A stretch of DNA of 64,000 nucleotides from assembly GCA_964552395.1 (NCBI GenBank), contig CAZKGM010000003.1, forward strand, positions 50,030 to 114,029, read 5' to 3'. A program made the translations under genes and the position numbers. The notes under the pieces are model-generated. The model ran no database searches, had not been told where the DNA came from, and was given only the letters and a program-made list of their open reading frames with translations. The stretch is from an uncultured Thermoanaerobaculia bacterium (GTDB lineage Bacteria > Acidobacteriota > Thermoanaerobaculia > Thermoanaerobaculales > Sulfomarinibacteraceae). This document shows, one piece after another, positions 32,913 through 57,006 of this stretch. The first letter of the stretch is position 1. Every line of letters starts with the position of its first letter.

Positions 32913-33230
32913 TCAGACGCAGCCAGTCGGCTTGGGAAGACCGGCAACCTTGCAGGCGCCCTTCGCCGGGCCGGACGGGAACAGCTCGTAGATCCGCTTC
33001 AGGTTGAAACCCGTTTCCTTGCAGAGCTTGCGGATCATTGGTGCGACCCCGAACTGCAGGTAGTACTCGCGAAGATAGTTGACAACCTTCCAGTGCTCCT
33101 CGGTCAGGTCATCGACCCCCTCGGTCGAGGCCAGGGCATGCGCGACGAGCTCGTTCCAGCCCTCCGGCTCCTGCATGAAGCCGTCCTCGTCGACCTCGAT
33201 GGATACCTCACCCTGTGTGAATGTTGGCAT
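32913..33230 (-). CDS. dsrC: Sulfur carrier DsrC
   Basis: DEDGFM, ELFPSGPAKGACKVAGLPKPTGCV with both C-terminal Cys present. Confidence 0.95.
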   Translation of the reverse strand: MPTFTQGEVSIEVDEDGFMQEPEGWNELVAHALASTEGVDDLTEEHWKVVNYLREYYLQFGVAPMIRKLCKETGFNLKRIYELFPSGPAKGACKVAGLPKPTGCV

Positions 33231-33232
33231 AA

Positions 33233-33820
33233 TCAGACCTCCTTTAAAGTCTCCGGAACCCCGGTTTCGGTGCTAGCCATGTTCGCGTTTCTCTGATTGA
33301 GCTCGCTCTCCGCTCGGTGGAGCTTCTTGAGGAACTCGGGCGACGGGCGGTGGCCCAGCGCCATGGCGGCGCCGAGCTCGGCCCGTGCTTCCTCGACCTG
33401 GTCGAGGGCCAGCAGGCCGACGGCCAGAAAGTAGTGCCCGGCGCCGTTGTCCGGGTCGAGCTCGAGGACCCGGCGATTGGCCCGTACGAGCCCCTCCGCG
33501 TCTCCCATGTAAAGGTACGACTGGCCGAGGTTGTAGTGGGCCAACGGCATGCCGTCCCGCAGCTTCACCGCCTCCAGATTGGCTTCGAGGGCCGCCTTGA
33601 AGTCCCACTTCAGGAGCAGCGCGCCACCGAGGTTGACCCATGCCTCAACGAGACTGGAGTCGAGCTCCACGGCCCTGCGGTACTCGCGCCCGGCGCGGTC
33701 CACGTAGCCGTGCTCGGTGTAGGCGAGACCCAGGTTGAAGTGAGCCGCGGCGGAGTCCGGGCACTCCTGCACCCGTGCCTCGCAGCGCTCAATCCGTTCT
33801 TTCAGCGACTCTATTGTCAT
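33233..33820 (-). CDS. Tetratricopeptide repeat protein in the dsr operon
   Basis: AHFNLG, AWVNLG, AHYNLG TPR motifs; ATGA coupling with the upstream gene. Confidence 0.85.
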   Translation of the reverse strand: MTIESLKERIERCEARVQECPDSAAAHFNLGLAYTEHGYVDRAGREYRRAVELDSSLVEAWVNLGGALLLKWDFKAALEANLEAVKLRDGMPLAHYNLGQSYLYMGDAEGLVRANRRVLELDPDNGAGHYFLAVGLLALDQVEEARAELGAAMALGHRPSPEFLKKLHRAESELNQRNANMASTETGVPETLKEV

Positions 33821-34329
33821 CGTGATCCCCCCCTCATGCACAAGTTCTCGATCGCAGCGAACAGTCTCCGCTCGGCATCATTCGCCGCCTCCAGCTCAAC
33901 TTCGATCTCGGCCAGGTACGGCCGGACCAGTCCCGGATCGGCCTCGGCGATCGCAGCCAGGGCCTGCAGCAGCTCGGGTCTCAGCCCCTCGTCCCACACC
34001 AGTGAGACAAGGGCACCGACGTGAGGGCCGACCAACCCCGGCGCGCGGCGGCCGATCTCGCCGATGGCGGCGAGGCCGGGCGCTCCATTAGTTCCCGACT
34101 CGTCGTTCAGCGCCCACAACAGGCGGCGCAGAATCTCCTTTCCCAGCTCCGCGTTCGCTGCCGCGGCTTCGCCAAGGGCGGCCGCGGCGCGGCTCCGCAC
34201 GGCCGTATCGTTGTCCCACAGGCGCCCGAGAAGCGGCCGCACCGAGCGGCTGTCGGCCTCTACCAGCCGCCGCAGCTCGTCGTCTCGACCCTCGTGCAGG
34301 AGCTCCGACACCATCTTCTTCAGCTCCAT
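33817..34329 (-). CDS. HEAT-repeat protein (DVU0298-like)
   Basis: RAAAALG, LRRLLWALNDESG, AIGEIGR. Start overlaps the dsrN stop region. Confidence 0.7.
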   Translation of the reverse strand: MELKKMVSELLHEGRDDELRRLVEADSRSVRPLLGRLWDNDTAVRSRAAAALGEAAAANAELGKEILRRLLWALNDESGTNGAPGLAAIGEIGRRAPGLVGPHVGALVSLVWDEGLRPELLQALAAIAEADPGLVRPYLAEIEVELEAANDAERRLFAAIENLCMRGGSR

Positions 34330-35720
34330 GCCAAAACCCGCGACCGTTCGTGTCGGAAGACTCGAGCCGCGTTCAGCAGCCCAGCGGACCACTGCGGAAC
34401 GGCCAGGGCGTGGAGATGAGTGTACGACGCCCAGACGCGGCCCTTGGCGATGCCGTCCCGGCCGCCGCCGACACCGGTGCCGCGCTCGAGCCCGGCCGCC
34501 GTCGCTTCGGCATCCGCACCGCCGACGACGTGCGAGTAGTGGAACTCGTGCCCGCAAAGGCGGGTGCCGACCGGAAAGAAGTGGTTCTCGCGGTCGACCC
34601 GGCCGACGACGTAGCCGTGGCCCTGTGGCCGCCGCGTGTGCTCCACGACCAGGTCCAACACTCCGGTCATACGGTGGGTGATGCCGTCGACGATGAGCTC
34701 CCGCGCCAGCAGCATGAGGCCCCCGCACTCGGCGTACACCGGCAGACCGGCGGCGACTGCCGCGGACAGCGATCCCGCGAAGCTGCGGGCGGCCGTCAGC
34801 TCGCGGGCGTACATCTCCGGAAATCCGCCGCCGATGTAGAGGGCATCGACATCCTCGGGCAGCGGCCGGTCGTCGCGCGGAGAAACCAGCACCAGCTCGG
34901 CGCCACCGGACTCCAGGGCCTCCAGGTTTTCCGGGTAGAAGAAGCTGAAGACGTCGTCATGAAGAACCGCCACGCGCGCCGGCAGCCCCGGCGACATCGG
35001 CCGCGCGCGCGGCAGCTCGAAAGGCGGCGCCATGGAAGCCGTCGCCAGCACCGTCTCCAGGTCCACGTGTCCGCGCACGAGCTCGGCGGCCTGCTCGATG
35101 GCGGACTCCCGATCCGGGTGCTCCGCCGCCGTCACCAGCCCCAGGTGGCGACCTGGAAGCGGCTCGGCCTGCCGCAGCCGCGGCACGGCGCCGACGACAG
35201 GCGGTCCGTCGACCGCCGCCAGCGCCTCGCGAATGAGGCTTTCCTGGCGCGCGGTGGCGACGCGGTTGAGGATCACCCCGGCGAGCTCCACCTGCGGGTC
35301 GAGAGCGCGACATCCCAGCACCATGGCCGCCGCGGTTCGCGTCGTCTTGGTCACGTCGACGACCAGCAGCACGGGGGCACGAAGGCGCTTCGCGAGCTCG
35401 CCCGTCGAGTGGGTACCGCGTGCGTCAAGACCGTCGAACAGCCCGCGGTTGCCCTCGACCAGGAGAAGGTCGGCCGGCAGGGAGCGCGCGACCGCCTCTC
35501 CCATCGCCTCGTCGTTCATCATGAAGGTATCGAGGTTGCGGGCCGTGCGGCCGGCCGCGGCCGCCAGCCACGCTGCATCGATGTAGTCCGGGCCCTTCTT
35601 GAACGGCGCCACGCCGACACCCCGCTCGACGAGGGCGCGGGCAATGCCGAGACAGACCAGCGTCTTGCCGCTGTCCCCGGCCAAGCCCGCCACTACGACG
35701 CGAGGGGTGTTGACGCGCAT
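34320..35720 (-). CDS. dsrN: Siroheme a-amide synthase (CbiA/CobB family)
   Basis: GDSGKT, FKKGPDYIDAAW, EGNRGLFDG, FYPENL, YAECGG, GHEFHYS; position inside the dsr operon. Confidence 0.9.
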   Translation of the reverse strand: MRVNTPRVVVAGLAGDSGKTLVCLGIARALVERGVGVAPFKKGPDYIDAAWLAAAAGRTARNLDTFMMNDEAMGEAVARSLPADLLLVEGNRGLFDGLDARGTHSTGELAKRLRAPVLLVVDVTKTTRTAAAMVLGCRALDPQVELAGVILNRVATARQESLIREALAAVDGPPVVGAVPRLRQAEPLPGRHLGLVTAAEHPDRESAIEQAAELVRGHVDLETVLATASMAPPFELPRARPMSPGLPARVAVLHDDVFSFFYPENLEALESGGAELVLVSPRDDRPLPEDVDALYIGGGFPEMYARELTAARSFAGSLSAAVAAGLPVYAECGGLMLLARELIVDGITHRMTGVLDLVVEHTRRPQGHGYVVGRVDRENHFFPVGTRLCGHEFHYSHVVGGADAEATAAGLERGTGVGGGRDGIAKGRVWASYTHLHALAVPQWSAGLLNAARVFRHERSRVLAWS

Positions 35721-35740
35721 CTCGTGCCGCCTGCCGCGCT

Positions 35741-37480
35741 CTACCGTCCCTCGAGAAAGCCGCAGGGACACTCTTCCCAGCACTTCTTGCAGCCGTCGCA
35801 CAGCTCGAGCTTAACCTCAAAGAAGTCGCCCATGCAGGGCTCGGAGACCTTCTTGAAGCAGTTGTTCTGGCAGTACATCCAGCAGTTCTCGCAGTCAAAG
35901 CAGAGGCCGCAGCTGAAGCACCGCGTCACCTCCTCGAGCGCCTGCTCGGCAGTAACCCCGAGGTCGACCTCGTCGAGCGGCCTCGCCAGCCGCTCCGCCG
36001 GACCCAGCTGCTTGCGCTCGGCGCGCGTCTTCGCCTCGTACCAGGCCATCTTGATCTTTTCGGGACCGATCGTGGATCTGGAGTCGTCGTTCGGAAGCGC
36101 AAGCCCCCGAAGCGCGGCGTGGATCGATTCGGCCGCCTTCCGGCCCTGGCCGATGGAGGTCGTGGCGATCCCCAGGTTGAGGTTGTCACCTCCGGTCCAG
36201 ACACCGTCAGTCGAGGTGCGGCCCCAGTCGTCCGCCTGCAGCCAGCCGTCGCCCAGCTCGTCGGAGCCGAGAACGTCGAGTGCCGGCTTCTGGCTGACCG
36301 CGGTGATCACGGTCTCGACCGGCAGCTCGTAGGTGTCGCCCTCGATCGGCACCGGCCGCCGGCGGCCGGACTCATCGGGCTCGCCGAGCTCCATGCGCTG
36401 CACGAGGATGGCTCGCACCGCCCCATCGGCGTCGCGCAGGATCTCCTTCGGTGCAGCGAGGAACTCGATGCCGATCCCCTCTTCCAGAGCCTCGTCGATT
36501 TCGCGCTCGATGGCCGGCATTTCGACACGGGTGCGGCGGTAGAGGATCGTGACGTCGGCGCCCATCCTCTTGGAGATCGCCGCCGAGTCGAAGATCAGGC
36601 GCTTGGAGACGCGCGCCGCGTCGATCGCGGTGTCGCCACCGCCGATCACGACCACTCTGCCGCCGAGCTCGACCTCCTTGCCGGAGTTCACGTGGTTGAG
36701 GAACTCGGTCCCGGTCCAGATCCCGGGGCCGTCCTCGCCCGGCACGCCGAGGTTCTTGCCGCGGTGGGCACCGATGGCGACGTAGATCGCCGCGTAATCG
36801 CGGCGCAGCTCGTCAAAGGCGATGTCCTTGCCCGCGGTGACGCCGCAGCGGATGTCGACGCCGGCGTCGGCGATGCGCTGGATCTCGGCGTCGAGCACCT
36901 CTCTCGGGAGGCGGTAGACGGGGATGCCGTAGCGCAGCATGCCGCCCGCCCGTGGCAGGCTCTCAAAGACGGTCACCGCATAGCCCCGCCGCGCCATTTG
37001 GTAGGCACAGGACAGCCCCGACGGCCCGCCGCCGATGACCGCGATCTTCTCTGTGAACGGCCCGCCGACGTCGAGCGCGGGCAGCTCGAGGCCTCGCTCC
37101 AGACCCCAGTCGCCGATGTGCCTCTCGACCGCATTGATGGCAACCGCGCCATCCTTCTCCTTGCGGTTACATTCGCCTTCGCACGGGTGCGGACAGACGC
37201 GGCCCATGATGGCCGGGAACGGGTTGGTCTCGACCTCCAGCCGCCACGCGCGGTCCGACGCCTCCTCCAACGTCAGGCCGAGCTTCTCCCGGTGCGCGAG
37301 AGTCGTCAGCCAGCCCCGGATATCGTTCCCCGACGGGCAGTGACCGATACACGGCGCCAACTTCTCGATCGCGATCGGACGCAGCGGCGAGATTTGCGAG
37401 CCCGAGCCTCCGCCGCTCGAAGTCAGCCGCGCCATGCGGCTCTTTGATCTTTCTGTGTCCTTCTTCTTCAGAAGACCCAT
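35741..37480 (-). CDS. dsrL: DsrL, NAD(P)H FeS flavoprotein (YRR motif, DsrL-2-like)
   Basis: APCIGHCP and GRVCPHPCE, GGGPSG FAD motif, GGGDTA, ILYRR, C-terminal 2x[4Fe-4S] ferredoxin; dsr context. Confidence 0.9.
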   Translation of the reverse strand: MGLLKKKDTERSKSRMARLTSSGGGSGSQISPLRPIAIEKLAPCIGHCPSGNDIRGWLTTLAHREKLGLTLEEASDRAWRLEVETNPFPAIMGRVCPHPCEGECNRKEKDGAVAINAVERHIGDWGLERGLELPALDVGGPFTEKIAVIGGGPSGLSCAYQMARRGYAVTVFESLPRAGGMLRYGIPVYRLPREVLDAEIQRIADAGVDIRCGVTAGKDIAFDELRRDYAAIYVAIGAHRGKNLGVPGEDGPGIWTGTEFLNHVNSGKEVELGGRVVVIGGGDTAIDAARVSKRLIFDSAAISKRMGADVTILYRRTRVEMPAIEREIDEALEEGIGIEFLAAPKEILRDADGAVRAILVQRMELGEPDESGRRRPVPIEGDTYELPVETVITAVSQKPALDVLGSDELGDGWLQADDWGRTSTDGVWTGGDNLNLGIATTSIGQGRKAAESIHAALRGLALPNDDSRSTIGPEKIKMAWYEAKTRAERKQLGPAERLARPLDEVDLGVTAEQALEEVTRCFSCGLCFDCENCWMYCQNNCFKKVSEPCMGDFFEVKLELCDGCKKCWEECPCGFLEGR

Positions 37481-37519: not shown

Positions 37520-37960
37520 TTACGCGTACGGGTACAAGTTTTTCTTGAACTCCTCGAGCTGGCCGAGGATGTGGTCGTGCTTCTCCTCATCGACGATCAG
37601 GTAGTCGAGCAGCGAGCGCTGTACGAAGAAACGGCACTCCTCCTTCAGCTTCTTGGCCAGCTCGATGGTCTCGCGCTCCACCTGGTCGTGGGCCTCGATA
37701 GCATCCCACACCTCGGCGAGGTCCTCAGGTGTCAGCTGGACCGGCGTTGTCGTCAGCGAGTCGATGATGAACTGCTGCACGCGATGGTGCTGTACCGAGT
37801 CGTTGCGGATGATCTCCATGAACTGCCGGATCAGGAGGTTGTTGGTTCTCTCCATGATCTCGGCCGTGGTCTCGACCGCGTCGCGCTCGAGAGCCTGCCA
37901 CTTGCGCAGCATCGCCACCATTTCCGAAACGCGCTCAGGACCCTTTGCGGATGTCGTCAT
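37520..37960 (-). CDS. Ferritin/rubrerythrin-like four-helix protein
   Basis: Duplicated helix pairs LERDA...NDSVQHH and VERET...DEEKH; AAGGAGG RBS. Confidence 0.7.
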   Translation of the reverse strand: MTTSAKGPERVSEMVAMLRKWQALERDAVETTAEIMERTNNLLIRQFMEIIRNDSVQHHRVQQFIIDSLTTTPVQLTPEDLAEVWDAIEAHDQVERETIELAKKLKEECRFFVQRSLLDYLIVDEEKHDHILGQLEEFKKNLYPYA

Positions 37961-38026: not shown

Positions 38027-38275
38027 TCAGCCGCCCGAGCCCTCCTCCGGCGGCAGGGTGATGAAGGAACCGCCGAAGTAGCTGTAGATGCAGCGCCCGG
38101 AGTCGATCAGCTGCCGGATCGCGAGCTTGCACAGCTTCTTGTCGACGGCGTCGTCGCCGAACTTTTCGATCATGGCCTTGGTCAGGTCCATGGCCTTCAG
38201 GTTCTTCTTGCCATGTGTGACCTTGACCAGGTCGAACATGGCCTGGGCCACCTCATCGACTATGGGCTGACTCAT
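38027..38275 (-). CDS. dsrD: DsrD
   Basis: 82 aa directly after dsrB; K..KKNLK..DL and LIDSGRCIYSYFGGSF. Confidence 0.88.
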   Translation of the reverse strand: MSQPIVDEVAQAMFDLVKVTHGKKNLKAMDLTKAMIEKFGDDAVDKKLCKLAIRQLIDSGRCIYSYFGGSFITLPPEEGSGG

Positions 38276-38284
38276 GACCGCCTC

Positions 38285-39361
38285 CTAGTGCTTCAGCTGG
38301 GTCGACCGCTTGTAGGTCTCCCCGGCATGCCTGAAGTCATCGATGTGGTACTTGGTGAACGGAATCCCGGTGATGTCGAAGAACCGGGGCCAGCCGATGC
38401 GCTCGATCCACTCACCCATCCGCTCATGCTTCTGAGCGTTCTCGGCATACACGTTGACGAGCTTGACCACGGCGTCCACAACCTCCGGCCACCGGGGCGG
38501 GTTGTTGGGGATGAAGGGGATGGCCAGCTTGGAGAACATGGGCTCGTGGCGGGCGTTGGAGACCTTGCCGCCGACCCAGATGGAGATGCCGTCGGCCTCG
38601 GCGTTGTTGATCTGCATCGCCGGGCAGACGGTGTAGCAGTTGCCGCAGTACATGCACTGCGCCTCTTCGACCTCCACCGACTGCTTGCCGTCGATGGTGG
38701 CCGGACGGATGGCGCCGGTCGGGCACGAGGAAACGAGCGTCGGGATCTCACACATCTTCGGCAGGTTCTCGTGATCGATCTTGGGCGCCTTGCGATGGAT
38801 TCCCAGCACCGAGATGTCGGAGCAGTGGACGGCGCCGCACATGTTGAGGCAGCAGGCGAACGCGATCCGCAGCTTCGCCGGCAGGTTCATGTTGACAAAG
38901 TGCGGGTACAGCTCGTCCATGATCGCCTTGACCACGCCGGAGGCGTCGGTCGCTGAGGAGTGGCAGTGAACCCAGCCCTGGGTGTGGACGATCGATGAGA
39001 TCGCGTTGCCGGTGCCGCCGACCGGGAAGCCGAGCTCATGCAGCTCCTCCTTCAAGGCGGCGATCTTCGACTTGTCGGTGAGCAGGAACTCCACGTTGTG
39101 GCGGCTCGTCCAGCGGAGATGCCCGCCACAGTACTTGTCCGCGAGCCCCGCGAATGCTCGAATTGTAACGGTGCTCAGAAGACGTGGGGTACCCGCCCGC
39201 ACCGTGTAGAGCTTGTCACCCGACTCCGCCACATGAACCATCACACCCGGCTCGAGGATCTCGTGGTAGGCCCACGTGCCGTAGTTCTTCTTGATGATTG
39301 GCGGAAGGAACTGCCTGAAGTCCGGGGGACCGATGTCGGTCTTTCTCTCTGCTACAGCCAT
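38285..39361 (-). CDS. dsrB: Dissimilatory sulfite reductase beta subunit
   Basis: [62 protein letters not shown]. Confidence 0.97.
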
Positions 39362-42224: not shown

Positions 42225-42240
42225 TGCAACCCATGTGCCA
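42225..42240 (-). promoter_or_regulatory. sigma54 promoter of the yeiH-dsrABD...dsrC operon
   Basis: Reverse complement TGGCAC-ATGGG-TTGCA, a perfect consensus; AT-rich tract at about 42265-42295. Confidence 0.88.
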
Positions 42241-42334: not shown

Positions 42335-42350
42335 GTTACCTGAGCGTAAC
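42335..42350. promoter_or_regulatory. Palindrome GTTAC-N6-GTAAC (candidate enhancer site 1)
   Basis: GTTAC-CTGAGC-GTAAC. A one-mismatch copy GTAAC-CGTCGG-GTAAC lies at 42438-42453. Confidence 0.75.
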
Positions 42351-47463: not shown

Positions 47464-47517
47464 GTCTCTCCTCCTTTGCATTCACGTTCAGACAGCCACT
47501 ACGGCCGGAACATCTAG

Positions 47518-47533
47518 TGCAAGCTGCGTTCCA
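47518..47533 (-). promoter_or_regulatory. sigma54 promoter of rhodanese-TVP38
   Basis: Reverse complement TGGAAC-GCAGC-TTGCA; AT-rich tract at about 47540-47572. Confidence 0.8.
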
Positions 47534-49048: not shown

Positions 49049-49432
49049 CTACTCCCCGATCAGCTCCGCAACGTGGGCCAGGAGCTCCTCGGGGGAGACG
49101 GGCTTCTCAAGGTAGCGGTCGCACGGCACCCACGACTCGTCGACCTCCATCCTCACGTTGTAGACCTGGTCCACACCGGTGAGCATGATGATCGGGATGG
49201 CGGCGGTCGCCGGATCCGTGCGCAACGTGCGCGCCACGTCGAAGCCTTCCGAGAGGTGGTCCATCATCACGTCGAGAACGATCAGATCCGGCGCTGCCTC
49301 GTGGACCCGAGCCAACCCCTCCGTTCCGTTGCCCGCTGTCGAGATGCGGTAGCGGGTTTCCAGTACCGCTGACACCGCGTCCACGAAAACCTCGTCGTCG
49401 TCGATCAGGAGGACTGTCTTCCTCTCGTCCAT
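49049..49432 (-). CDS. Stand-alone response regulator receiver
   Basis: LLIDDD, LDVMM, IIMLT, YLEKP; no output domain. Confidence 0.9.
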   Translation of the reverse strand: MDERKTVLLIDDDEVFVDAVSAVLETRYRISTAGNGTEGLARVHEAAPDLIVLDVMMDHLSEGFDVARTLRTDPATAAIPIIMLTGVDQVYNVRMEVDESWVPCDRYLEKPVSPEELLAHVAELIGE

Positions 49433-49440: not shown

Positions 49441-51351
49441 CTAGTGTCCGACCAGCGCCCCTGTTGGACATGCGGTGAGGCATGAGCCACAGTGGATGCA
49501 CAGCTCCTGGTTCACGGAGTGCACATGCTTGATCGTACCCGAGATGGCATCCGATGGACAGGCCTTGGCGCACAGTCCGCAGCCGTTGCACAGCTCCTCA
49601 CTGATCGAGTATGTCAGCAACGCCTTGCACTGGCCCGCGGGACAACGACGATCGACTACGTGGGCCTCGTACTCCTCGCGGAAGTGGCGCAACGTCGACA
49701 GGACGGGGTTCGGCCCGGTTTGTCCGAGGCCGCAGAGCGCGGTTCCCTTGATGTGAGCGGCCATCGACTCCAGGAGATCGAGATCCTCGAGCCGTCCCCG
49801 GCCGGCGGTGATCTCCTCCAGAGTATTCAGCATCACCCTGGTGCCGATGCGACAGGGAGGACACTTACCGCATGACTCGTCGACCACGAACTCGAGGAAG
49901 AAGCGCGCCAGCTCCACCATGCAGGTGGAGGAATCCATGACGATGAGGCCCCCCGAGCCCATGATGGCACCCAGCTCCTGCAGCGACTCGTAGTCGATCG
50001 GGGTATCGGCGGCCGACGCCGGTATGCAGCCCCCGGATGGACCGCCCGACTGCGCCGCCTTGAACGGTAGCCCCGAGCGCATCCCGCCGCCGATCTCCTC
50101 CACCACCTCAGCCAGCGAGACACCCATCGGCACCTCGACCAGCCCGGTGTTGCGAACCGCCCCCGCAAGGGCGAACACCTTGGTTCCCTTGCTTCGCTGG
50201 GTGCCGATGCCGGCGTACCAGTCGGCGCCTCGGAGCAGAATCGGAGGCACGTTGGCCCATGTCTCGACGTTGTTGAGCAAGGTCGGCCGGTTCCACAGCC
50301 CACACTGAGCGGGGAACGGCGGCCGCGGTCGCGGTGTACCACGCTGTCCTTCGATCGACCGCATGAGGGCCGTTTCCTCGCCGCACACGAAGGCTCCGGC
50401 CCCGATCCGAATCTCGACCTCGAAGGTGTGCCCGGAGCCCAGGATATCGGGCCCCAGCAGGCCGCAGCGCCACGCGTTCTCGATCGCGCCCTCGAGTCGT
50501 TCGATCGCGAGAGGGTACTCGGCCCTGACATAGATGTAGCCCTGACGCGAGCCGATGACACGGCCCGCTATCGTCATCGCCTCGATGACGGAGAGCGGGT
50601 CTCCCTCGAGGATGCTGCGGTCCATGAACGCGCCGGGATCGCCCTCGTCGGCGTTGCAGACCACGTACTTGACGTCGCCGGCCGCCTCACGAACGAACTG
50701 CCACTTGAGGCCGGCAGGAAAACCGGCGCCGCCGCGGCCGCGCAGGCCGCTTCGCTTGAGAGCGTCGAGCACCTCGGTCGCTTCGAGGTCGAACAGGACC
50801 TTCTCGAGAGCCCTGTAGCCATCGGCTGCCACGTACTCCTCGAGGCTCGCGGGATCGATCACGCCGCAGTTGCGCAGCGCGATCTTCTGCTGCCGCGCGA
50901 AGAACGGTACCTCTCTGCTGTGCAAGAGCTTGCCCTCGGGCGTCTCCCAGGCAAGCTCGAGATCGGCCACAGGGGTGTTGCCGGCCAGATGCTCGGAGAC
51001 GACGCGCTGCACCTTTTCTGGATCGAGCATCGGGTAATACACACCGTCCGGCACCACAAGGGCCAGGGGGCCGGCGTCGCACAGCCCCATGCAACCCACC
51101 TCGACCACTCTCACGGCATCCTGGAGCCCTGCGCCGGCAACCTCGTCGCGCAGGGCCTGCGCGACAGAGTCGGCATGGCAAGAAACACAAGCTCCACCAG
51201 CGCACACCAGCACCTCGCGCCGGACCGGAGTCTCTCCACGACGGCTCTCGAGCCGCGTCGCGAGCTGCGTCGACAGGGCGCTGCGAATGGCCGCCAGGTC
51301 CGTCCTCGTGAGCGGGTTGGGGATCGCCGAGTCAGGCAGGTTCGTCGCCAC
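49441..51351 (-). CDS. HydB/NuoF-like NAD(H)/FMN subunit with N-terminal [2Fe-2S] and C-terminal 2x[4Fe-4S]
   Basis: CAGGAC...CMGLC, LRGRGGAGFP, CNADEGDPGAFMDR, CGEETAL, SCGKCPPCRIG, CNGCGLCAKACP. Confidence 0.92.
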   Translation of the reverse strand: MATNLPDSAIPNPLTRTDLAAIRSALSTQLATRLESRRGETPVRREVLVCAGGACVSCHADSVAQALRDEVAGAGLQDAVRVVEVGCMGLCDAGPLALVVPDGVYYPMLDPEKVQRVVSEHLAGNTPVADLELAWETPEGKLLHSREVPFFARQQKIALRNCGVIDPASLEEYVAADGYRALEKVLFDLEATEVLDALKRSGLRGRGGAGFPAGLKWQFVREAAGDVKYVVCNADEGDPGAFMDRSILEGDPLSVIEAMTIAGRVIGSRQGYIYVRAEYPLAIERLEGAIENAWRCGLLGPDILGSGHTFEVEIRIGAGAFVCGEETALMRSIEGQRGTPRPRPPFPAQCGLWNRPTLLNNVETWANVPPILLRGADWYAGIGTQRSKGTKVFALAGAVRNTGLVEVPMGVSLAEVVEEIGGGMRSGLPFKAAQSGGPSGGCIPASAADTPIDYESLQELGAIMGSGGLIVMDSSTCMVELARFFLEFVVDESCGKCPPCRIGTRVMLNTLEEITAGRGRLEDLDLLESMAAHIKGTALCGLGQTGPNPVLSTLRHFREEYEAHVVDRRCPAGQCKALLTYSISEELCNGCGLCAKACPSDAISGTIKHVHSVNQELCIHCGSCLTACPTGALVGH

Positions 51352-51949
51352 TGGCCTCCTCCTCCGCTGACGCGGCGCTCTCTCGCCGCGCCCGTGCCCG
51401 CAACTTCCGAACCAGCTTCCGCACCTCGGTGGCAGTCAGGTGACCGTGCACCTCATCGTTCACCATCATGGCCGGAGCGAGGCCGCAGGCACCGATGCAG
51501 CGCACCTGCTCGAGACTGAAGAGTCGGTCCTCAGTGACATCACCAATCCCGATCGCGAGCAGGCTCTCGATCGCCTCCAGCACGCGCTGTCCCTGCCGAA
51601 CGAAGCAAGCGGTTCCCATACACACCTTGAGCTGATACCGACCGCGGGGGTTGGTGGTAAAGAAGTGGTAGAAGCTGACCACGCCGTAGACCTCGATCGG
51701 CGACAGAGCGAGCTGCTGGGCGACGTACTCCTGGACCGGAAACGGAAGGTAGCCGATCTCCTCCTGCACCCTGTGCAACAGCGGAATCAGCCGCTCCCGT
51801 CCGCCGGGGTGCGCGGCAACCCACTGGTCGATCAGGTCCCACACCTCCGGACGGATCTCGTCGGCCGGAAGCGGTTCCTGGGTCCCGAAGAAGCCCGGCA
51901 ACTCGCCCGTTGTGCGCTGCCGCTCTTCCACCCCCGTACGCTCGCTCAT
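51332..51949 (-). CDS. HydC/NuoE-like [2Fe-2S] subunit
   Basis: VVSFYHFF, VCMGTAC, RCIGACGLAP. Confidence 0.92.
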   Translation of the reverse strand: MSERTGVEERQRTTGELPGFFGTQEPLPADEIRPEVWDLIDQWVAAHPGGRERLIPLLHRVQEEIGYLPFPVQEYVAQQLALSPIEVYGVVSFYHFFTTNPRGRYQLKVCMGTACFVRQGQRVLEAIESLLAIGIGDVTEDRLFSLEQVRCIGACGLAPAMMVNDEVHGHLTATEVRKLVRKLRARARRESAASAEEEASGDEPA

Positions 51950-54474
51950 TTCGACCTCCGGACCTCAACTGCCGTCGGCTCGGCCCCGTTCTCCATCAGC
52001 CGCGCAGCCGCATCCTCGCTGCCGTACCACTGCGCCACCGGCCTCCCCGGCCTCACCCGGCGGTCAAGCCGGGCGCGAAGCAGAATCTCCCTGCCGCCCG
52101 CCCTGACGCACACGCGCTCGCCGTTGCGGACACCGACGGCCTCGGCGTCGGACGGGGCGAGGTGGAGGGCGACAGTCGGCGCCAGCTCCTGGAGAGTCGC
52201 GCTGAAGCTGGTCACCAGCCCGCTGTGGAACAGACGGGGCGAGGCGTCGAGCAGCATCCCGCTCGGCTTCCTGCTTCCTATCGGCGGCGGCGCGGCGGCA
52301 AGACTCACCGTGGGCCGCTGAGCCGCTCCGGCCAGGGCTGCTGCGATCTCCTCGTCGAGGAGCAGCTTCGACGGCAGCTCCACGCCCAGCCGCCGCGCAA
52401 CCTCCACGATCAAGCGGCCATCCTGGGGAAGGCCCGCCGGAGCCTGCACGACTCCGGCAAGGCGCCGCCGCTGTCCGTCGGCGGCGACCACGGACCCTTC
52501 CCGCTCGCCCAGGATCGCTACCGGCAGCACGACGTCGGCAAGGCGGGCGGACTCGGTGAGGAACGTGTCCTGCACCACCACGAACTCCGCGCTCCGCACC
52601 ATGGCACGCCCGGCCAGGCGTCTGGGCCAGGAGCCCACCGGGTCCTCGCCAACGAGGTAGAGCAGCCCTACCTCCCCCGTCGCCGCGTGCTCGCTAGCTT
52701 CAGCAAGGGACCATCCCGGGGCTGCAGGCACCGGTACGCCCCATGCCGCCTCGAGCCCAGCTGTCGCCTCGCAGTCGCCAACACGCTTGCCGCCCGGCAG
52801 CAGTCGAGGATGGAGACCAACGTCGAGCACGCCCTGCACGTTTGCCTTTTCGCCCAGGACCATCACCTTCGGTTCGGCTCCATCCCCGCCGCCGAGAAGC
52901 GACATCAGCTCGACTGCGGCACGTGTCACCTCGGCCTCGTCGCCCGGGATGCCGAGCCCGGTCAGCACCACGGCGACTGGTGCGGTCGCCGCAAGCAGGC
53001 GCTCGGCAAGCTCCTCGAGCCGTTCCGGCGCCACCCCGGTGATCTCCGAGGCCGTCACCGGTGTGTAGGCACCGAGGCTGGTGAGCCAGTCCGAGAGCCC
53101 GGCGGCCCCTTGGTCCCTGGCTATCCCGGAGCGCTCCGCCACCCGTGCGGCCACCGCCCGTACCAGGACCTCCTCTGTTCCGAGAGCCGGCGAAAGGTGC
53201 ATGGCGGCGTGTCGCTCCAGTCCGCCCGAGAGACCATGCACGAGGATGAAGTCCCGTCCCCGTTGCCGGGCCCCCTGTACGAGCTCGGTCTTCACGAGCG
53301 GGTGGGTCCGGGTGGGGTCCGCCCGCAGCACGAGGACCAGGTCCGCGGCCCACAGGTCCTCGAACGTGGCCGTCGACCGCGCCGCGCCTGTGCGCTGGCC
53401 CATCCCGTCGACCAGTGCCTCGACACCGCCCACAGGTCCGACTCCGACATGCGGTGAGCCGAGGCCGCCGCGCACCAGCCGCTGCAGGAGATAGGCGTCC
53501 TCGCAGGTGAGGCGGGAGCTTCCGACCGCGACCACAGCCTTCTTCGACCGGCGAGTCTCGGCGGCAATACGCTCGACCTCGGCCAGCGCTTCGGCCCAGC
53601 TGGCGTCGACCAGGCGCCCGCCGCGCCGCACCAGCGGCACCGACAGCCGCTGCGGGCTGGTGAGAACGTCCCAGCCGAGCCAACCCTTGGCGCAAAGCTT
53701 GCCGCGGTTGGGCGCCGTGTCCGGGTCCGCCGTGACCCGCTGCAGGGCCCCGCCGTGCGTCTCAACCGTCACCTGACAGCCGCAGCTGCACAGGGAGCAG
53801 GTCGTCACAGCCCTTTGCCGGAGCCACGCCGGTACGTCCGAGTGGTAGGGCCTGGCGGAGAGCGCTCCCACCGGACAGGAGTTGACACACTGGCCGCAGA
53901 ACTCGCAGTCCAGCGGTCGCTCGAGAAACGTGGTGACCCGTGCATCGAGGCCGCGGTTGACAATGCCGATCTCCGCCACCCCCTGTACCTCGTCGCACAG
54001 GCGAACGCAACGGCCGCACAGGATGCACTTCTCTGCGTCGCGGACGATGACCGGCGAACGGTCGTCGAGCGGCACCTGCCGGCGCTCGAACGGCAACAGG
54101 GCATCGGCAACTCCGTGGTCGAAGACCAAGTCCTGGAGACGGCAGTCGCCACTCTTTTCGCACACCGGACACTCCATCCGATGATCGAGCACGATCAGCT
54201 GCAGCTGCCGCCGTCTTGCCTCGATCACCTGCGGCGTGTCGGTCTCGACAATCATGCCCCGCTGCACCGGGGTCGAGCACGCCGGCACCAGGCCGCCGCG
54301 CCCGTCCCGCCGCTCTACCAGACACAGACGACAGCCTCCGTAGGGGGTCAGGCGATCGTCGTGGCACAGCGTGGGTACGGAGATCCCGAGCCCCCGCAGG
54401 ACCTCGAGGACCGAGGCGCCGGAGCTGGCCTCGAGCTGCTCACCGTTGACCGTGATCGGCACGCTCGCCGTCAT
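51946..54474 (-). CDS. NuoG/FdhA-like FeS relay subunit with molybdopterin-fold C-terminus lacking a catalytic ligand
   Basis: CH...CRLC...C [2Fe-2S], HRMECPVC...C, 2x CxxCxxCxxxC, CSLCSCGC...LCAKG. No C/U-H motif in the Mo-ligand region. Confidence 0.85.
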   Translation of the reverse strand: MTASVPITVNGEQLEASSGASVLEVLRGLGISVPTLCHDDRLTPYGGCRLCLVERRDGRGGLVPACSTPVQRGMIVETDTPQVIEARRRQLQLIVLDHRMECPVCEKSGDCRLQDLVFDHGVADALLPFERRQVPLDDRSPVIVRDAEKCILCGRCVRLCDEVQGVAEIGIVNRGLDARVTTFLERPLDCEFCGQCVNSCPVGALSARPYHSDVPAWLRQRAVTTCSLCSCGCQVTVETHGGALQRVTADPDTAPNRGKLCAKGWLGWDVLTSPQRLSVPLVRRGGRLVDASWAEALAEVERIAAETRRSKKAVVAVGSSRLTCEDAYLLQRLVRGGLGSPHVGVGPVGGVEALVDGMGQRTGAARSTATFEDLWAADLVLVLRADPTRTHPLVKTELVQGARQRGRDFILVHGLSGGLERHAAMHLSPALGTEEVLVRAVAARVAERSGIARDQGAAGLSDWLTSLGAYTPVTASEITGVAPERLEELAERLLAATAPVAVVLTGLGIPGDEAEVTRAAVELMSLLGGGDGAEPKVMVLGEKANVQGVLDVGLHPRLLPGGKRVGDCEATAGLEAAWGVPVPAAPGWSLAEASEHAATGEVGLLYLVGEDPVGSWPRRLAGRAMVRSAEFVVVQDTFLTESARLADVVLPVAILGEREGSVVAADGQRRRLAGVVQAPAGLPQDGRLIVEVARRLGVELPSKLLLDEEIAAALAGAAQRPTVSLAAAPPPIGSRKPSGMLLDASPRLFHSGLVTSFSATLQELAPTVALHLAPSDAEAVGVRNGERVCVRAGGREILLRARLDRRVRPGRPVAQWYGSEDAAARLMENGAEPTAVEVRRSK

Positions 54475-54485: not shown

Positions 54486-56612
54486 TCACTCGACCCCCAG
54501 CGGTCGCAGTCTCTTGAACGCCCACTTCGTCCGCAACCGGTTCCCGTAGCGGGCGATGCTCCCCGGCGGTTTGGCGGACGCCTTCGACCTCCAGTCCTTC
54601 TCGAACAGGAAGTCCAGAATGTGGATCGCCGGCTTGCCGGTGCCGGCGATCGCCATCCGACAGCCGGCGCAGTAGGTCACCTGAGGCAGCGCGGACTCCG
54701 CCGCCCGCCGCCGGCTCACGGCCTGCGAGAGCTCCGGATCCACCGGGTAGATCATGCCTCCGAAGCCGCAGCAGCGGGCCAGCTCACCGTTGTACTCGAT
54801 GTCGTCGACCCCGCCGCCGCCCGCCTCGATCAGAGTACGGACCGCTTGGTGAAGATCCGGCTCGTGGCGCGCCTTGCACGAGTCGTGGACCGAGACGACT
54901 TCTCCCTCCCGTCTCCGCGGCGGCTCCCACCTCCCGGCCAGCAGCTCCCACACCGTCGTCACCGCGAGCTCGGGAAAGCTCTCCTTCAAGGTATGGGCGC
55001 AGTCGGGGCAGGCGGCGACCAGCTCTTCCGCACCGACCTTCTCGGCCGCCTCCAGGATCCCTCGCCGCGTCTGTTCAAACTCCTCCTCCATCCCGAGCAG
55101 CTCCACCGGCGCGCCGCAGCAGTACATGAGAACGCCCGTTCCGGGGTAGCTCCGCCGCAGCTCGTCATACATGGTGATCGTGTGGCGCGGCGCGACCGCC
55201 GGCAGGGCGCAGCCGGTGAAGAACAGCCGCTTCGCCCGTCTCCTGCCCGGCTCGGCCATTGCCAGCGTGAACATCGAGCCGACTCCGGCCTTCCAGTAGC
55301 TCACGATCCCCTTGTGCACGGGCAGCGGGCCGACACCCTCCTCGACCGCTCGGCGCCGCGCCTCAATCAGTAGCCGCCCGGTGTCGAGGTCCTCCGGGCA
55401 CACTGCGGCGCACAGGGAACAGACGTTACAGGAGTACGCCATCTTCACCGTCTCGGGCACCTCGAGACCGGCCATGATGCGTCGTGCGATGTCCTTCGGC
55501 GAGCTGCAGTACTTGGCGAGGAATTCGCAGTCCTTGACGCACAGACCACACTCGCAATCAAGGCACCGGGCGGCTTCCTCGAGGGCCTCCTCCTCAGTCA
55601 GCGGCGGGTTGGCAGGGACCAGCATCATCGGGGTCCGCTCGCGCCTCTTGCGCTCCTCCTCGGTGACCTCCAACGTCCACAGCAGGCGATCCGGTAGCAG
55701 CTGCTCGCGATCGGCCCTGAGGTCTCGGCCGCTCAGAAAGCGGTCCACAGACTCCGCCGCCCGGCGCCCCAGCGCCAGCGAGTAGATCACCGTCGCGGGC
55801 CCGCTGACGGCGTCGCCGCCGGCGAAAACACCCGCCATTGGGGTCTCACAGGTCAGGGGGTCCACAGCCAGGAGCCCACGCGGGGTGGTGCCTTCGGCGC
55901 CCCGGCGCATCATCACGCACGCCCCGGCAAAACCCACCAGCAGCAGCACCGCGGCATAGTCACGGCGCAGCTCATCGAGGGTGATGTCGCGCCCGACCTC
56001 GACCCCGGTGCGCACCTCGATGCCGAGCGCGGCGACGACCGACAGGTCGCGCTCCACGACGCTTCTCGGCAGGCGCCAGGCCGGGATCTTGGCAACCAGG
56101 CAGCCGCCGATCTCCTGCTCTCGCTCGAAGACCGTGACCCCGAACCCCTTCCTGCGCAGGTCATACGCTGCCAGCAGGCCCGCCGGGCCGGCGCCCACGA
56201 CCGCCACCCGCTGCCCACGGTCCGGCTCGCAGTCGATCACGTGCTGCGGCTCCCCCGTCTCCCACTCGGCCAGGAACCTCTTGATATCGCGGACACGGAC
56301 CGCTTCGTCCTCGTCAATCCGCTTGCAGTGCAGCTCGCACGGATGGGCGCAGACATACCCCAGAACCCCGGGAAACGGCAGGCGCTCCCGCACCAGCTGC
56401 AGGGCCTCGCGGAACCGACCCTCACGGGTCAGCTGGACGTAGCCCCGAGCATCCACGTGCAGCGGGCAACGTCCGACGCAGTTGGCGGGCCCCTCGCCGC
56501 GACACCGCTCGAGCAGATCGCTCGCCAGCCACTCCAGGCTCCCGACATCGTGCCTGGTACCACCGACAACCCCGAGGGCCGATCCTTCCAGACGGTCCGC
56601 TGGTTCTGCCAT
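54486..56612 (-). CDS. GltD-like FAD/FeS oxidoreductase fused to 2x[4Fe-4S] and two CCG domains
   Basis: CVGRCP and GYVCAHPCE, VGAGPAG, FAGGD, CLDCECGLCVKDC, CNVCSLCAAVCP, FTGC/CCG/CPDC and HDSC/CCGFGG/YCAGC. Confidence 0.88.
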   Translation of the reverse strand: MAEPADRLEGSALGVVGGTRHDVGSLEWLASDLLERCRGEGPANCVGRCPLHVDARGYVQLTREGRFREALQLVRERLPFPGVLGYVCAHPCELHCKRIDEDEAVRVRDIKRFLAEWETGEPQHVIDCEPDRGQRVAVVGAGPAGLLAAYDLRRKGFGVTVFEREQEIGGCLVAKIPAWRLPRSVVERDLSVVAALGIEVRTGVEVGRDITLDELRRDYAAVLLLVGFAGACVMMRRGAEGTTPRGLLAVDPLTCETPMAGVFAGGDAVSGPATVIYSLALGRRAAESVDRFLSGRDLRADREQLLPDRLLWTLEVTEEERKRRERTPMMLVPANPPLTEEEALEEAARCLDCECGLCVKDCEFLAKYCSSPKDIARRIMAGLEVPETVKMAYSCNVCSLCAAVCPEDLDTGRLLIEARRRAVEEGVGPLPVHKGIVSYWKAGVGSMFTLAMAEPGRRRAKRLFFTGCALPAVAPRHTITMYDELRRSYPGTGVLMYCCGAPVELLGMEEEFEQTRRGILEAAEKVGAEELVAACPDCAHTLKESFPELAVTTVWELLAGRWEPPRRREGEVVSVHDSCKARHEPDLHQAVRTLIEAGGGGVDDIEYNGELARCCGFGGMIYPVDPELSQAVSRRRAAESALPQVTYCAGCRMAIAGTGKPAIHILDFLFEKDWRSKASAKPPGSIARYGNRLRTKWAFKRLRPLGVE

Positions 56613-56709
56613 ACGCTACCTCCGCCTTGCCGCCGGCCGGAGATCGCTCGCCCACGACCCTCGGCGGGCCTCACGCGCCTCTCCGAACCGTTCCGATCCT
56701 CGCCGACCG

Positions 56710-56967
56710 TCACCGATTCGTAACATCATCGGCCACCCGTTCGAAACGTGCGGGTCGGAGCTCGAACTCTCTGCAGGCCACCTCCGGATCCTGAAAGGTG
56801 TTCCGCACCGCGCAGATGCCCGCGCGCCCGCGCGTCGAGCCATAGGACGACGACAGCACGAGGATGCCGGGGAAGCTCCTCTCGAGAGCCGCCGGATCGT
56901 CCTGGAAGTACCTGCACTCAGCACAGGTTCGGCTCTCCTCGACAGCTGAAGGGTGATCTCTGATCAT
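56710..56967 (-). CDS. Small 4-Cys protein (C-X2-C-X33-C-X12-C-X2-F)
   Basis: 85 aa ORF directly after a sigma54 motif, on the same strand as the cluster. Confidence 0.65.
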   Translation of the reverse strand: MIRDHPSAVEESRTCAECRYFQDDPAALERSFPGILVLSSSYGSTRGRAGICAVRNTFQDPEVACREFELRPARFERVADDVTNR

Positions 56968-56990
56968 GCTGCACCACCACCGCCGGGTCA

Positions 56991-57006
56991 TGCAATTGGT
57001 ATGCCC
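56991..57006 (-). promoter_or_regulatory. sigma54 promoter of the flavo-FeS/CCG unit
   Basis: Reverse complement GGGCAT-ACCAA-TTGCA keeps the GG-N10-GC spacing. Confidence 0.7.

Follow-up and report, generated by a model that had tools for sequence, protein, structure and literature searches.

In Desulfovibrio, FlxABCD-HdrABC is the proposed NADH:DsrC/ferredoxin oxidoreductase, and in Wolinella the rhodanese-like protein Sud is a periplasmic sulfur carrier. Reductive dissimilatory sulfite reductase (dsr) gene clusters have been described in Acidobacteriota, Kapabacteria and other recently recognized sulfite/sulfate reducers (PMC6018796; PMC6338057; PMC8528874; PMC10591310); the paralogs dsrM2 and dsrK2 have already been noted upstream of dsrAB (PMC6018796; PMC6338057); and the combination of DsrD, DsrL-2 and reductive DsrAB is a published indicator of the reductive pathway (PMC10591310; PMC8794893), the YRR motif being a criterion for DsrL-2 (PMC8528874). 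Salmonella depends on the transporter gene yeiH for its resistance to sulfite (PMC12880088); in H. denitrificans thiosulfate induces the gene 526-fold, and its product is a candidate sulfite exporter (PMC11582611). Here we analyze 64,000 nucleotides from an uncultured Thermoanaerobaculia bacterium (contig CAZKGM010000003.1, positions 50,030 to 114,029 of the forward strand; hereafter the window), in which positions 32913-57006 hold a sulfur gene cluster. From the letters alone, the original prediction had read this cluster as a thiosulfate- and sulfite-fed Dsr pathway, in which an exported rhodanese releases sulfite, YeiH moves it, DsrAB and DsrC reduce it, and DsrC is recycled at the membrane or by a soluble CCG complex.

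We find that the cluster is a fusion of two conserved blocks, the accessory one self-standing and not exclusive to dsr. Block 1 comprises dsrA, dsrB, a dsrD-like gene, a ferritin-like gene, dsrL2, dsrN, HEAT and TPR genes and dsrC, together with the paralogous, menaquinol-linked DsrM2K2; block 2 comprises an exported rhodanese, DedA, a long-form YeiH with its companion orf85, a histidine kinase, a receiver and a four-subunit enzyme of the cytoplasm. That the accessory units are tied to dsrAB by more than adjacency is well supported by common sigma-54 boxes, a common palindrome and conserved synteny. We hold with moderate confidence that the locus is a sigma-54/enhancer-controlled regulon of four co-directional units in two blocks, serving sulfite respiration by the mechanism proposed below. 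It bears on two questions: how sulfite or intermediate sulfur crosses the membrane, and which proteins feed electrons to DsrAB and DsrC in uncultured dsr lineages.

Results

Organization of the cluster

Open reading frames (ORFs) were called with guidance from GC content at third codon positions (GC3), and families were assigned by Pfam and NCBIfam scans of the window proteins; the scans covered ORFs with coding-like composition, a few short ORFs (8031-9029 among them) lying outside. For comparison, a DsrA-anchored scan with one genome per species gave 80 relatives' loci; L001, L002 and so on are labels of the loci compared. By these means 32913-57006 is an uninterrupted minus-strand gene array, which reads in order of transcription:

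56710-56967, minus strand: orf85, small conserved four-cysteine protein (CxxC...GSTRG...C...C)
54486-56612, minus strand: 708-aa DsrL-like flavo-iron-sulfur (FeS)/CCG protein (NCBIfam NF045663, 541.7 bits, cutoff 530)
51946-54474, minus strand: NuoG/FdsA-like FeS subunit, 859 aa, with a molybdopterin fold and without the catalytic Cys/Sec-His
51332-51949, minus strand: NuoE/HoxE-like [2Fe-2S] subunit (Pfam, NCBIfam)
49441-51351, minus strand: NuoF-like FMN/NADH subunit of the HydB/StnB/NfnB type (Pfam domains)
49049-49432, minus strand: receiver-only response regulator (Pfam)
47588-49045, minus strand: histidine kinase, a PilS-like sensor with six transmembrane segments (Pfam)
46492-47481, minus strand: exported two-domain rhodanese (active-site loop FYCQSGVRTT)
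45596-46381, minus strand: DedA/VTT-family membrane protein (Pfam)
44301-45197, minus strand: DsrM2, NarI-type membrane cytochrome b paralog (NarI fold)
42691-44304, minus strand: DsrK2, CCG/FeS catalytic subunit paralog (DsrK model 324.6 bits, below the cutoff of 400)
40590-42173, minus strand: YeiH, long-form transporter of the Putative Sulfate Exporter (PSE) family, 527 aa (PF03601, 133.3 bits, cutoff 24.5)
39378-40571, minus strand: DsrA (TIGR02064, 590.7 bits, cutoff 392.9)
38285-39361, minus strand: DsrB (TIGR02066, 514.2 bits, cutoff 341.5)
38027-38275, minus strand: DsrD-like winged-helix protein, 82 aa (position, size, fold)
37520-37960, minus strand: ferritin-like orf154, 146 aa (invariant residue pattern)
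35741-37480, minus strand: DsrL type 2 (PRK12771, 559 bits, cutoff 516)
34320-35723, minus strand: DsrN, a,c-diamide synthase homolog (Pfam, NCBIfam)
33817-34326, minus strand: small HEAT-like protein (weak family match)
33233-33820, minus strand: TPR protein (Pfam)
32913-33230, minus strand: DsrC (PF04358, 132 bits)

Every gene class named in the original prediction is found on the minus strand where it had been placed, and the contiguous single-strand arrangement is borne out; DedA/VTT, the histidine kinase, the receiver-only regulator, ferritin-like orf154, the HEAT and TPR proteins and four-Cys orf85 had been missed. Co-orientation is by itself weak and little informative evidence, because all genes from 28669 to 62726, beyond the cluster too, lie on the minus strand. 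Spacing is tight in the final ten genes, yeiH to dsrC (-7 to 66 nt); only the rhodanese gene (106 nt), dedA (110 nt), dsrM2 (~400 nt) and yeiH (~517 nt) are preceded by longer gaps.

Two ORFs were rejected as genes: orf91 (42336-42611), which is of low complexity, has no homologs and lies inside the regulatory gap before yeiH; and the long form of orf303 (33817-34728), of which only the C-terminal 169 aa, the HEAT-like protein at 33817-34326, are conserved, most of that ORF being spurious. An Rfam search of the window gave no matches, and scans of it for sigma-70 promoters and terminators gave no more than chance. Beyond the window, one flank (~10 kb) carries only efflux and housekeeping genes, and the other reaches the contig end. 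Just upstream of the cluster lies a gene for a DsbA/Thioredoxin_4 protein (57161-58294, 377 aa); recA, zinc alcohol dehydrogenase and DsbA-like genes also stand ahead of the CCG operon in L084 and L091. The DsbA-like protein could be a periplasmic thiol partner of the rhodanese, or merely conserved synteny.

A sigma-54 box and a palindrome shared by four transcription units

We searched for a sigma-54 box of consensus TGGCAC-N5-TTGCW and for the palindrome GTTAC-N6-GTAAC, and assessed enrichment against 100 shuffles. The copies in the cluster are:

56991-57006, minus strand: sigma-54-type -24/-12 box GGGCATACCAATTGCA, two mismatches, 24 nt upstream of the orf85 start
56709-56724: palindrome GTCAC-N6-GTAAC, one mismatch, between orf85 and the CCG gene
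47639-47654: palindrome GTTACCCTGCTGTAAC, ~106 nt upstream of the rhodanese sigma-54 box
47518-47533, minus strand: sigma-54 box TGGAACGCAGCTTGCA, one mismatch, 37 nt before the rhodanese ATG
45394-45409: palindrome GTTACGGAAAGGTAAC, upstream of dsrM2
45241-45256, minus strand: sigma-54 box CGGCACGATACTTGCT, one mismatch, 44 nt before the dsrM2 start
42438-42453: palindrome GTAACCGTCGGGTAAC, one mismatch, before yeiH
42335-42350: palindrome GTTACCTGAGCGTAAC, exact, before yeiH
42225-42240, minus strand: sigma-54 box TGGCACATGGGTTGCA, perfect, 52 nt before the yeiH ATG

Before yeiH, dsrM2 and the rhodanese gene, a palindrome stands ~95-140 nt ahead of the box, whereas that of the orf85 unit lies downstream of its box. 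Three exact and two one-mismatch palindromes occur in the window, all inside the cluster and at the heads of its units, against 0.19 expected, and none of the 100 shuffles reaches five; boxes with at most one mismatch number four in the window against 1.38 expected, a count reached by one shuffle in 100.

The same layout recurs in relatives, whose loci hold 23 exact palindromes in 1.58 Mb against ~0.5 expected by our own base-composition estimate; those that were checked lie ~110 nt upstream of a sigma-54 box. An exact palindrome stands ~110 nt upstream of the yeiH/dsrA box in 11 relatives' loci (L001, L003, L004, L005, L008, L009, L011-L014 and L038), and a box that is perfect or has one mismatch stands before yeiH (before dsrA in loci without yeiH) in L001-L005, L007-L015 and L038, as one precedes yeiH in L094-L098. 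Further boxes in relatives precede the rhodanese gene, dsrM2 and orf85; L083 and L084 have the one-mismatch form GGGCAC..TTGCA ahead of their DsrL-like/CCG operon, and that of L083 immediately precedes an orf93-like gene. The palindrome upstream of the rhodanese gene is shared by L001, L003, L012, L083, L090 and L092; L084 has an exact copy at the place of the window's orf85/CCG copy; and in L002, L003, L005 and L012 the palindrome also stands between dsrC and the canonical dsrK block. The shared promoter motifs claimed for the cluster are thus real, being sigma-54 boxes and a palindrome that are both enriched and conserved in relatives, and from these elements the four transcription units very probably form one regulon. 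To the extent that sequence allows, this speaks to the co-expression with dsrAB that the original prediction had made its condition. No link between sigma-54 and dsrAB was found in the literature searched.

Three relatives (L004, L008 and L011) encode a PAS-containing sigma-54 activator immediately ahead of the dsrA palindrome and promoter, accompanied by kinase and receiver genes. This activator (8281-9714 in L004, also in L008 and L011) carries a cysteine-rich stretch, RRCCEVFQASICSTLCP, in its PAS region and might act on dsr expression in Thermoanaerobaculales as a redox or FeS sensor. The window itself encodes a sigma-54 activator (15510-16931, minus strand) that has an unassigned N-terminal sensor domain of ~140 aa but lacks a receiver; with the dsrA-adjacent activator of L004 it shares only 36% identity, too little to name it the regulator of the cluster. 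The window contains no rpoN. A second perfect sigma-54 box, TGGCACTCCTCTTGCT (12785-12800, minus strand), stands 24 nt upstream of the gene at 9093-12761, whose product is a secreted 1222-aa protein with BNR/Ycf48 repeats; because the GTTAC-N6-GTAAC palindrome is absent there, this box probably answers to a different activator.

The accessory module in relatives

The module was compared in 11 non-identical contexts: the window, L081, L083, L084, L085, L090-L093, L174 and L175. The NF045663 gene is followed by the NuoG-like gene in all 11, with a NuoF-like gene in the same locus in all and a NuoE-like gene in 10; an exported rhodanese is encoded nearby in every context, DedA/VTT, receiver and kinase usually, and YeiH often. 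Six of the 11 adjoin dsr genes: in four contexts the module leads, as it does in the window, into DsrM2K2 or a DsrK-type CCG gene, and that of L175 is convergent with dsrC-N-L. The adjacency is not chance, because it recurs too often and in too many arrangements. A comparison of synteny with other dsr-positive relatives had been named as a check on the original prediction, and it turned out in its favor: synteny is conserved, and the accessory units are linked to dsrAB. In three contexts lacking dsr, a ~1050-aa radical-SAM/methyltransferase/DUF5714 fusion is encoded beside the module (L081 3836-7036, L085 16325-19423, L093 17323-20490).

A DsrL paralog in an NADH-linked enzyme

The 708-aa protein aligns with the window's DsrL at 40% identity over residues 42-237 and 35% over 422-579; DsrL residues 238-421, the whole NAD(P)H domain, are replaced by ~30 residues, and a C-terminal extension adds an HdrD-like 2x[4Fe-4S] ferredoxin and two CCG domains (PF13534 and PF02754; motifs MYCCGAP and RCCGFGG). 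Outside its own family, NF045663 (pyridine nucleotide-disulfide oxidoreductase/dicluster-binding protein; thousands of relatives), its best family match is PRK12771, of DsrL type. On this sequence comparison, the protein is a DsrL paralog in which the NAD(P)H domain has been lost and a CCG domain of HdrD type acquired, which strengthens the Dsr connection of the soluble CCG unit.

Its partners are of bifurcating type. The NuoF-like subunit aligns over residues 44-633 with 7t2r_B residues 5-594 (785 bits) and full-length with 7q4v_B, 9n5u_B and 8oh5_B. The alignment takes in the additional 2Fe-2S domain at the N-terminus and the 2x[4Fe-4S] domain at the C-terminus, and by its domains the subunit is assigned as a bifurcating-type (Bfu) flavoprotein subunit. 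In alignments of the NuoG-like subunit with 6tg9_A and 9wxb_B, the FdsA stretch CARVCHSP falls on GPVGGVEA; as the active-site Cys/Sec-His is absent, a formate dehydrogenase of the FdsABG type is rejected, and the subunit's sequence marks it as a cofactor-less or non-catalytic scaffold. The receiver gene after the NuoF gene is conserved in L001, L003, L081, L084, L091 and L174.

The simplest reading of these sequences is a soluble complex in which NADH would enter at NuoF and electrons would pass along FeS chains and the DsrL-like FAD to the HdrD-like site. That site would reduce a disulfide, persulfide or trisulfide; by analogy with Flx-Hdr, oxidized DsrC is a candidate and coupling to ferredoxin could occur. 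Recycling of DsrC by a soluble complex, as originally proposed, is plausible and gains appeal from the DsrL paralogy.

YeiH, orf85, DedA and the exported rhodanese

The yeiH gene ends 18 nt before dsrA, inside one sigma-54 unit, and the arrangement recurs in 13 loci, seven from genomes and six from metagenomes. We surveyed it also from the yeiH side, in 80 metagenome loci with long-form yeiH relatives: besides the loci in which dsrA follows, another five carry genes of dsrMK, dsrL or orf154 type in the vicinity, and in 30 of the 80 the gene directly after yeiH is an orf85-like (orf93-like) one. The more distant relatives (L106, L120) have sulfatase, protease and ABC transporter genes as neighbors, which is uninformative.

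The window protein scores 71.7 bits against TIGR00698, below the cutoff of 232.6. As a long form it has ~100 aa added at the N-terminus, with further transmembrane segments, and a soluble insert, likewise of ~100 aa, at approximately residues 400-500 of the 555-aa ORF. The orthologs of L081 and L174 (539-555 aa) share this insert. E. coli YeiH has 349 aa and is without it. Sulfite import by a secondary carrier is possible in a sulfite respirer; of the claim that YeiH moves sulfite, which is plausible, the tie of the family to sulfite stands on experiment, but the known phenotypes point to export, not import.

The orf85/orf93 family has the motif CxxC...LSSxYGSTRG...C...C. Its gene stands ahead of yeiH in L007 and L081, and the pairs in L099-L173 come from very different GC backgrounds; the family appears to be a dedicated partner of the long-form YeiH subfamily.

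The predicted export of the rhodanese is supported by an N-terminal signal peptide conserved in eight homologs, which all share the mature N-terminus (D/E)(N/K)YKGFERG and the loop FYCQSGVRTT. Cleavage of thiosulfate by this protein is purely conjectural. DedA follows the rhodanese also in L001, L002, L003, L012, L083, L084, L091, L174 and L175.

The dsr core operon

The DsrA of the window scores 589 bits against A. fulgidus and 514 bits against D. vulgaris among solved reductive DsrA structures, and its best matches are from Acidobacteriota metagenome-assembled genomes (MAGs; 93, 85 and 82% identity), followed by Thermoanaerobaculales and Candidatus Sulfomarinibacteraceae, a lineage published as having reductive-type Dsr (PMC8528874). 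The original prediction was thus right to place the window in Acidobacteriota. Essentially all 80 loci, which span many phyla, show the order dsrA-B-D-(ferritin-like)-L-N-(HEAT)-(TPR)-C. DsrL has the YRR motif (ILYRRTRVE) in its NAD(P)H domain and C-terminal CxxCxxCxxC motifs, and DsrC keeps both C-terminal redox cysteines (C-terminus ...CKVAGLPKPTGCV). The core appears to be a reductive dsrAB-D-L(type 2)-N-C operon of the kind already described in Acidobacteriota.

The gene directly after dsrB, which had been called dsrD, keeps this position in 70 of the 80 relatives' loci. Its AlphaFold2 model (predicted local distance difference test, pLDDT, 80) has an H-H-H-beta-hairpin topology, and its top fold matches are winged helices including Z-alpha. 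Pfam DsrD (PF08679) gave no match at E<=10 in any of 17 family members, a profile search against the Protein Data Bank (PDB) did not recover 1UCR (D. vulgaris DsvD), and hhalign against 1UCR was non-significant (E=0.38), although aligned in the expected helix-wing register. The name therefore holds by position, size and modeled winged-helix fold only, and not by significant sequence homology.

The orf154 protein, which corresponds to the 'hyp' between dsrN and dsrL of PMC6338057, is always encoded directly upstream of dsrL, even where Ignavibacteria and Kapabacteria have the order dsrD-dsrN-orf-dsrL. Its assignment as ferritin-like comes from the invariant residues E25, D54-S55-x-x-H58, E95 and E125-x-x-H128 (E...DSxxH...E...ExxH) and from weak matches to designed diiron bundles, its single-sequence model being poor (pLDDT 48); it could be a diiron partner of DsrL.

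DsrM2K2 and the region after dsrC

A DsrM/K-like pair is present as predicted, but consists of the M2K2 paralogs rather than canonical DsrMKJOP. Identity between DsrK2 and L003's canonical DsrK reaches only 30%, and the canonical DsrM of L003 as query gave no match to the window's DsrM2; copies of DsrM2, 36-81% identical, adjoin dsrAB in 16 of the 80 relatives' loci. The identification as canonical DsrMK(JOP) is rejected, DsrK falling below its cutoff and DsrT, DsrJ, DsrO and DsrP being absent from the window.

Six relatives (L002, L003, L005, L006, L010 and L012) have a canonical-type DsrK match (27-30% identity) ~2 kb after dsrC, where the block of L003 reads dsrT-M-K-J from its ORFs. Among close relatives, only the window and its nearest relative, L001, are without dsrT-M-K-J at this site, which is occupied by trkAH in the window and by an amidohydrolase gene in L001. 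The window's trkA-trkH (K+ uptake; 29730-32586) lies between dsrC and an amidohydrolase gene; in L001, a 93%-identical relative, dsrC and the amidohydrolase gene are ~0.5 kb apart, separated by nothing but a short ORF. This suggests that trkA-trkH is a recent insertion or rearrangement where other relatives hold dsrTMKJOP.

Neither the family scans nor tblastn with a relative's DsrT, DsrM and DsrJ found sat, apr, qmo, dsrEFH, dsrT or dsrJOP in the window, so the absence of these genes, as originally noted, holds for the scanned ORFs; sat, aprAB and qmoABC are also absent from ~10 kb beyond one window end.

An octaheme cytochrome module elsewhere in the window

3464-7736, minus strand: HmcB-like periplasmic FeS protein (335 aa) and 1091-aa HmcC/NrfD-multiheme fusion (NCBIfam)

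The fusion combines an HmcC/NrfD membrane subunit, c3-type multiheme domains and an octaheme cytochrome of the tetrathionate reductase family (TIGR04315, 433 bits, cutoff 375). From its sequence the pair looks like a single-operon quinol:tetrathionate reductase, and in function it would be a DsrJOP-like, periplasm-facing module, though it is not DsrJOP. The octaheme enzyme Otr has been proposed to give periplasmic thiosulfate in Candidatus Sulfomarinibacter (PMC8528874); by analogy, the module could generate periplasmic thiosulfate here.

Discussion

Our analysis suggests how the parts of the cluster might work together in sulfite respiration. Sulfite would cross the membrane via YeiH, possibly with a contribution from DedA; DsrAB, activated by DsrD, would reduce it with NAD(P)H delivered via DsrL, yielding the DsrC trisulfide; and the trisulfide would be reduced at the membrane by DsrM2K2 with menaquinol or, alternatively, in the cytoplasm by the DsrL-like/CCG complex with NADH, comparable to FlxABCD-HdrABC and maybe coupled to ferredoxin. 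The periplasmic rhodanese would mobilize thiosulfate or sulfane sulfur, the module at 3464-7736 could supply thiosulfate from tetrathionate, and a sigma-54 activator binding GTTAC-N6-GTAAC would switch all units on together.

Several observations weigh against this scheme. Most relatives of the window's YeiH do not adjoin dsrA (six of the 80 metagenome loci do), and known YeiH phenotypes favor sulfite tolerance or export over import. The best named relatives of the rhodanese, ExtH (79 bits, cutoff 200) and SseA, both score below cutoff, and the sequence tests for DsrD fail. Five of the 11 module contexts have no dsr gene within 10 kb, and three of these (L085, L092 and L093) lie beside DUF2064/GT2 arsenosugar (ArsS)-type genes, L092 with CMD and rSAM-DUF3641 (rSAM, radical SAM) in addition; the name of NF045663 ('near Sec') records a selenoprotein neighborhood. 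As the module occurs without dsr within 10 kb, its substrate need not be a Dsr intermediate. Finally, exclusive feeding by thiosulfate and sulfite cannot be concluded, because it rests on absence from 64 kb, which is uninformative about the genome; a 'sulfite-only' lifestyle should not be read from genes absent on one contig.

The strongest alternative, which we consider possible though rather unlikely, is this: the organism is an ordinary complete sulfate reducer with sat, aprAB, qmo and maybe dsrTMKJOP elsewhere, YeiH is a safety valve for sulfite export, and the module is redox or thiol housekeeping that shares a regulator. Related Candidatus Sulfomarinibacter encode the full sulfate-reduction pathway in dispersed genes, with sat, apr and qmo elsewhere in the genome (PMC8528874), and the six relatives named above keep dsrT-M-K-J directly after dsrC; YeiH phenotypes are those of tolerance and efflux (PMC12880088; PMC11582611), and extension of the contig (~10 kb on one side, the contig end on the other) is uninformative. 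However, dsrTMKJOP is lost from its ancestral position in the window and in L001, the exported rhodanese and the homolog of octaheme tetrathionate reductase argue for intermediate sulfur species, and a CCG protein that is a DsrL paralog fits housekeeping poorly.

It is quite unlikely, in our estimate, that the module serves a different chalcogen or a metalloid (selenite, tellurite, thioarsenate or selenium in trafficking, for example) and has no mechanistic tie to Dsr, its adjacency reflecting shared anoxic regulation. Such a role would suit the selenoprotein neighborhood for which NF045663 is named, the match of the rhodanese to ExtH, which comes from a selenite/tellurite reduction operon, and the arsenosugar-type neighbors in L085, L092 and L093 (DUF2064 and GT2, with CMD and rSAM-DUF3641 in part). 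A DedA protein has also been implicated in selenite uptake. Against it weigh the adjacency of the module to dsr in six of 11 contexts and in two orientations, the same palindrome and sigma-54 layout before dsrA and, in relatives, before dsrT, a yeiH joined to the dsr operon and a CCG subunit that is a DsrL paralog.

Less likely still is a disproportionating or oxidative direction, with sulfane sulfur fed in by the rhodanese, DsrC-bound sulfur oxidized by DsrAB, electrons passed from DsrL to NAD(P)+ and sulfite exported by YeiH, which would match the known direction of YeiH and its strong induction during thiosulfate oxidation in H. denitrificans (PMC11582611), the occurrence of DsrL-2 in organisms of either sulfur-metabolism direction (PMC10591310) and the reversal discussed for Acidobacteria (PMC6018796), but which is opposed by DsrAB closest to reductive enzymes and from reductive-type relatives, by the DsrD-like gene and the absence of dsrEFH, sox, sqr and soe among the scanned window ORFs, by DsrL beside reductive DsrAB and DsrD, a proposed reductive indicator (DsrL-2C, assigned here by context; PMC10591310), and by the transcription of dsrAB in a related acidobacterium under anoxic, sulfate-reducing conditions (PMC10564751).

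Within the sigma-54-controlled sulfite-respiration regulon that we favor, the dsr core operon and dsrM2K2 upstream of dsrAB were already known. New are the joining of yeiH to dsrA; the set of rhodanese, DedA, YeiH and NADH-linked enzyme as a self-standing module; and a DsrL-paralog/CCG subunit with bifurcating-type NuoEFG. In the literature searched we found no paper joining YeiH and dsrAB and no description of the DsrL-paralog/CCG-NuoEFG enzyme and its module or of the sigma-54/palindrome regulon; nor is there mention of an operon that starts with yeiH, of loss of dsrTMKJOP after dsrC or of the linked module. A bolder proposal, which we regard as doubtful, is that the DsrL-like/CCG protein and NuoEFG form a soluble, NADH-driven and possibly ferredoxin-coupled enzyme that would do the jobs of both DsrL, in feeding DsrAB, and DsrK, in reducing the DsrC trisulfide, a new electron route where dsrTMKJOP has been lost after dsrC, and that YeiH would be the first dedicated dissimilatory sulfite transporter. 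If true, a lineage without dsrTMKJOP after dsrC would have a new way of delivering electrons and coupling energy when it respires sulfite. The locus provides clonable candidates, namely a yeiH joined to dsrA and a DsrL paralog with NuoEFG-type input and heterodisulfide-reductase output, and the sigma-54 box with GTTAC-N6-GTAAC can be used to delineate the dsr regulon in MAGs of Acidobacteriota, which are abundant in marine and wetland sediments.

Comparison with known systems

The window's YeiH belongs with YeiH/SuyZ in the Putative Sulfate Exporter family (TC 2.A.98) by its PF03601 membership, and the family is tied to sulfite (PMC12880088; PMC11582611). Unlike known YeiH proteins, it is lengthened to 527 aa by an N-terminal extension and a ~100-aa insert, scores below the TIGR00698 cutoff, and is encoded in a dissimilatory sulfite reductase operon with a small four-Cys protein, not a LysR regulator, as partner. 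The rhodanese resembles Sud and Geobacter ExtH in being exported, in its catalytic Cys loop and in the position of its gene beside respiratory chalcogen genes; it differs from them in having two domains and in matching weakly in sequence (79 bits for ExtH against a cutoff of 200).

For the accessory enzyme, the closest solved relatives are those of the Bfu family (NiFe- and FeFe-HydABC, StnABC/NfnABC; PDB 7t2r, 7q4v, 8oh5, 9n5u, 9bov): the NuoF-like subunit matches their B subunit from end to end, and the Stn/Nfn large subunit is matched by the window's NuoG-like and GltD-like parts. Unlike in the Bfu enzymes, the GltD-like module is a separate protein that lacks the NADP(H) domain and has a CCG disulfide-reductase domain in its place, so that the third substrate should be neither NADP+ nor H2. 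With FlxABCD-HdrABC the enzyme shares a soluble NuoEF-like NADH module wired to a CCG heterodisulfide-reductase site in a dsr organism, and the role proposed for both is to reduce oxidized DsrC. The subunit composition differs: the window enzyme has a DsrL/GltD-type flavoprotein fused to the HdrD-like domain, no HdrA, and a NuoG/Fdh-like scaffold.

The dsr genes themselves agree with the known reductive clusters of Acidobacteriota and Kapabacteria (PMC6018796; PMC6338057; PMC8528874; PMC10591310) in gene set and order, including the 'hyp' gene before dsrL, dsrM2/dsrK2, a two-Cys DsrC and the YRR motif of DsrL. Unlike those clusters, the operon described here has no canonical dsrTMKJOP after dsrC; it starts with yeiH and is contiguous with a rhodanese/DedA/NADH-CCG module with which it shares common control elements.

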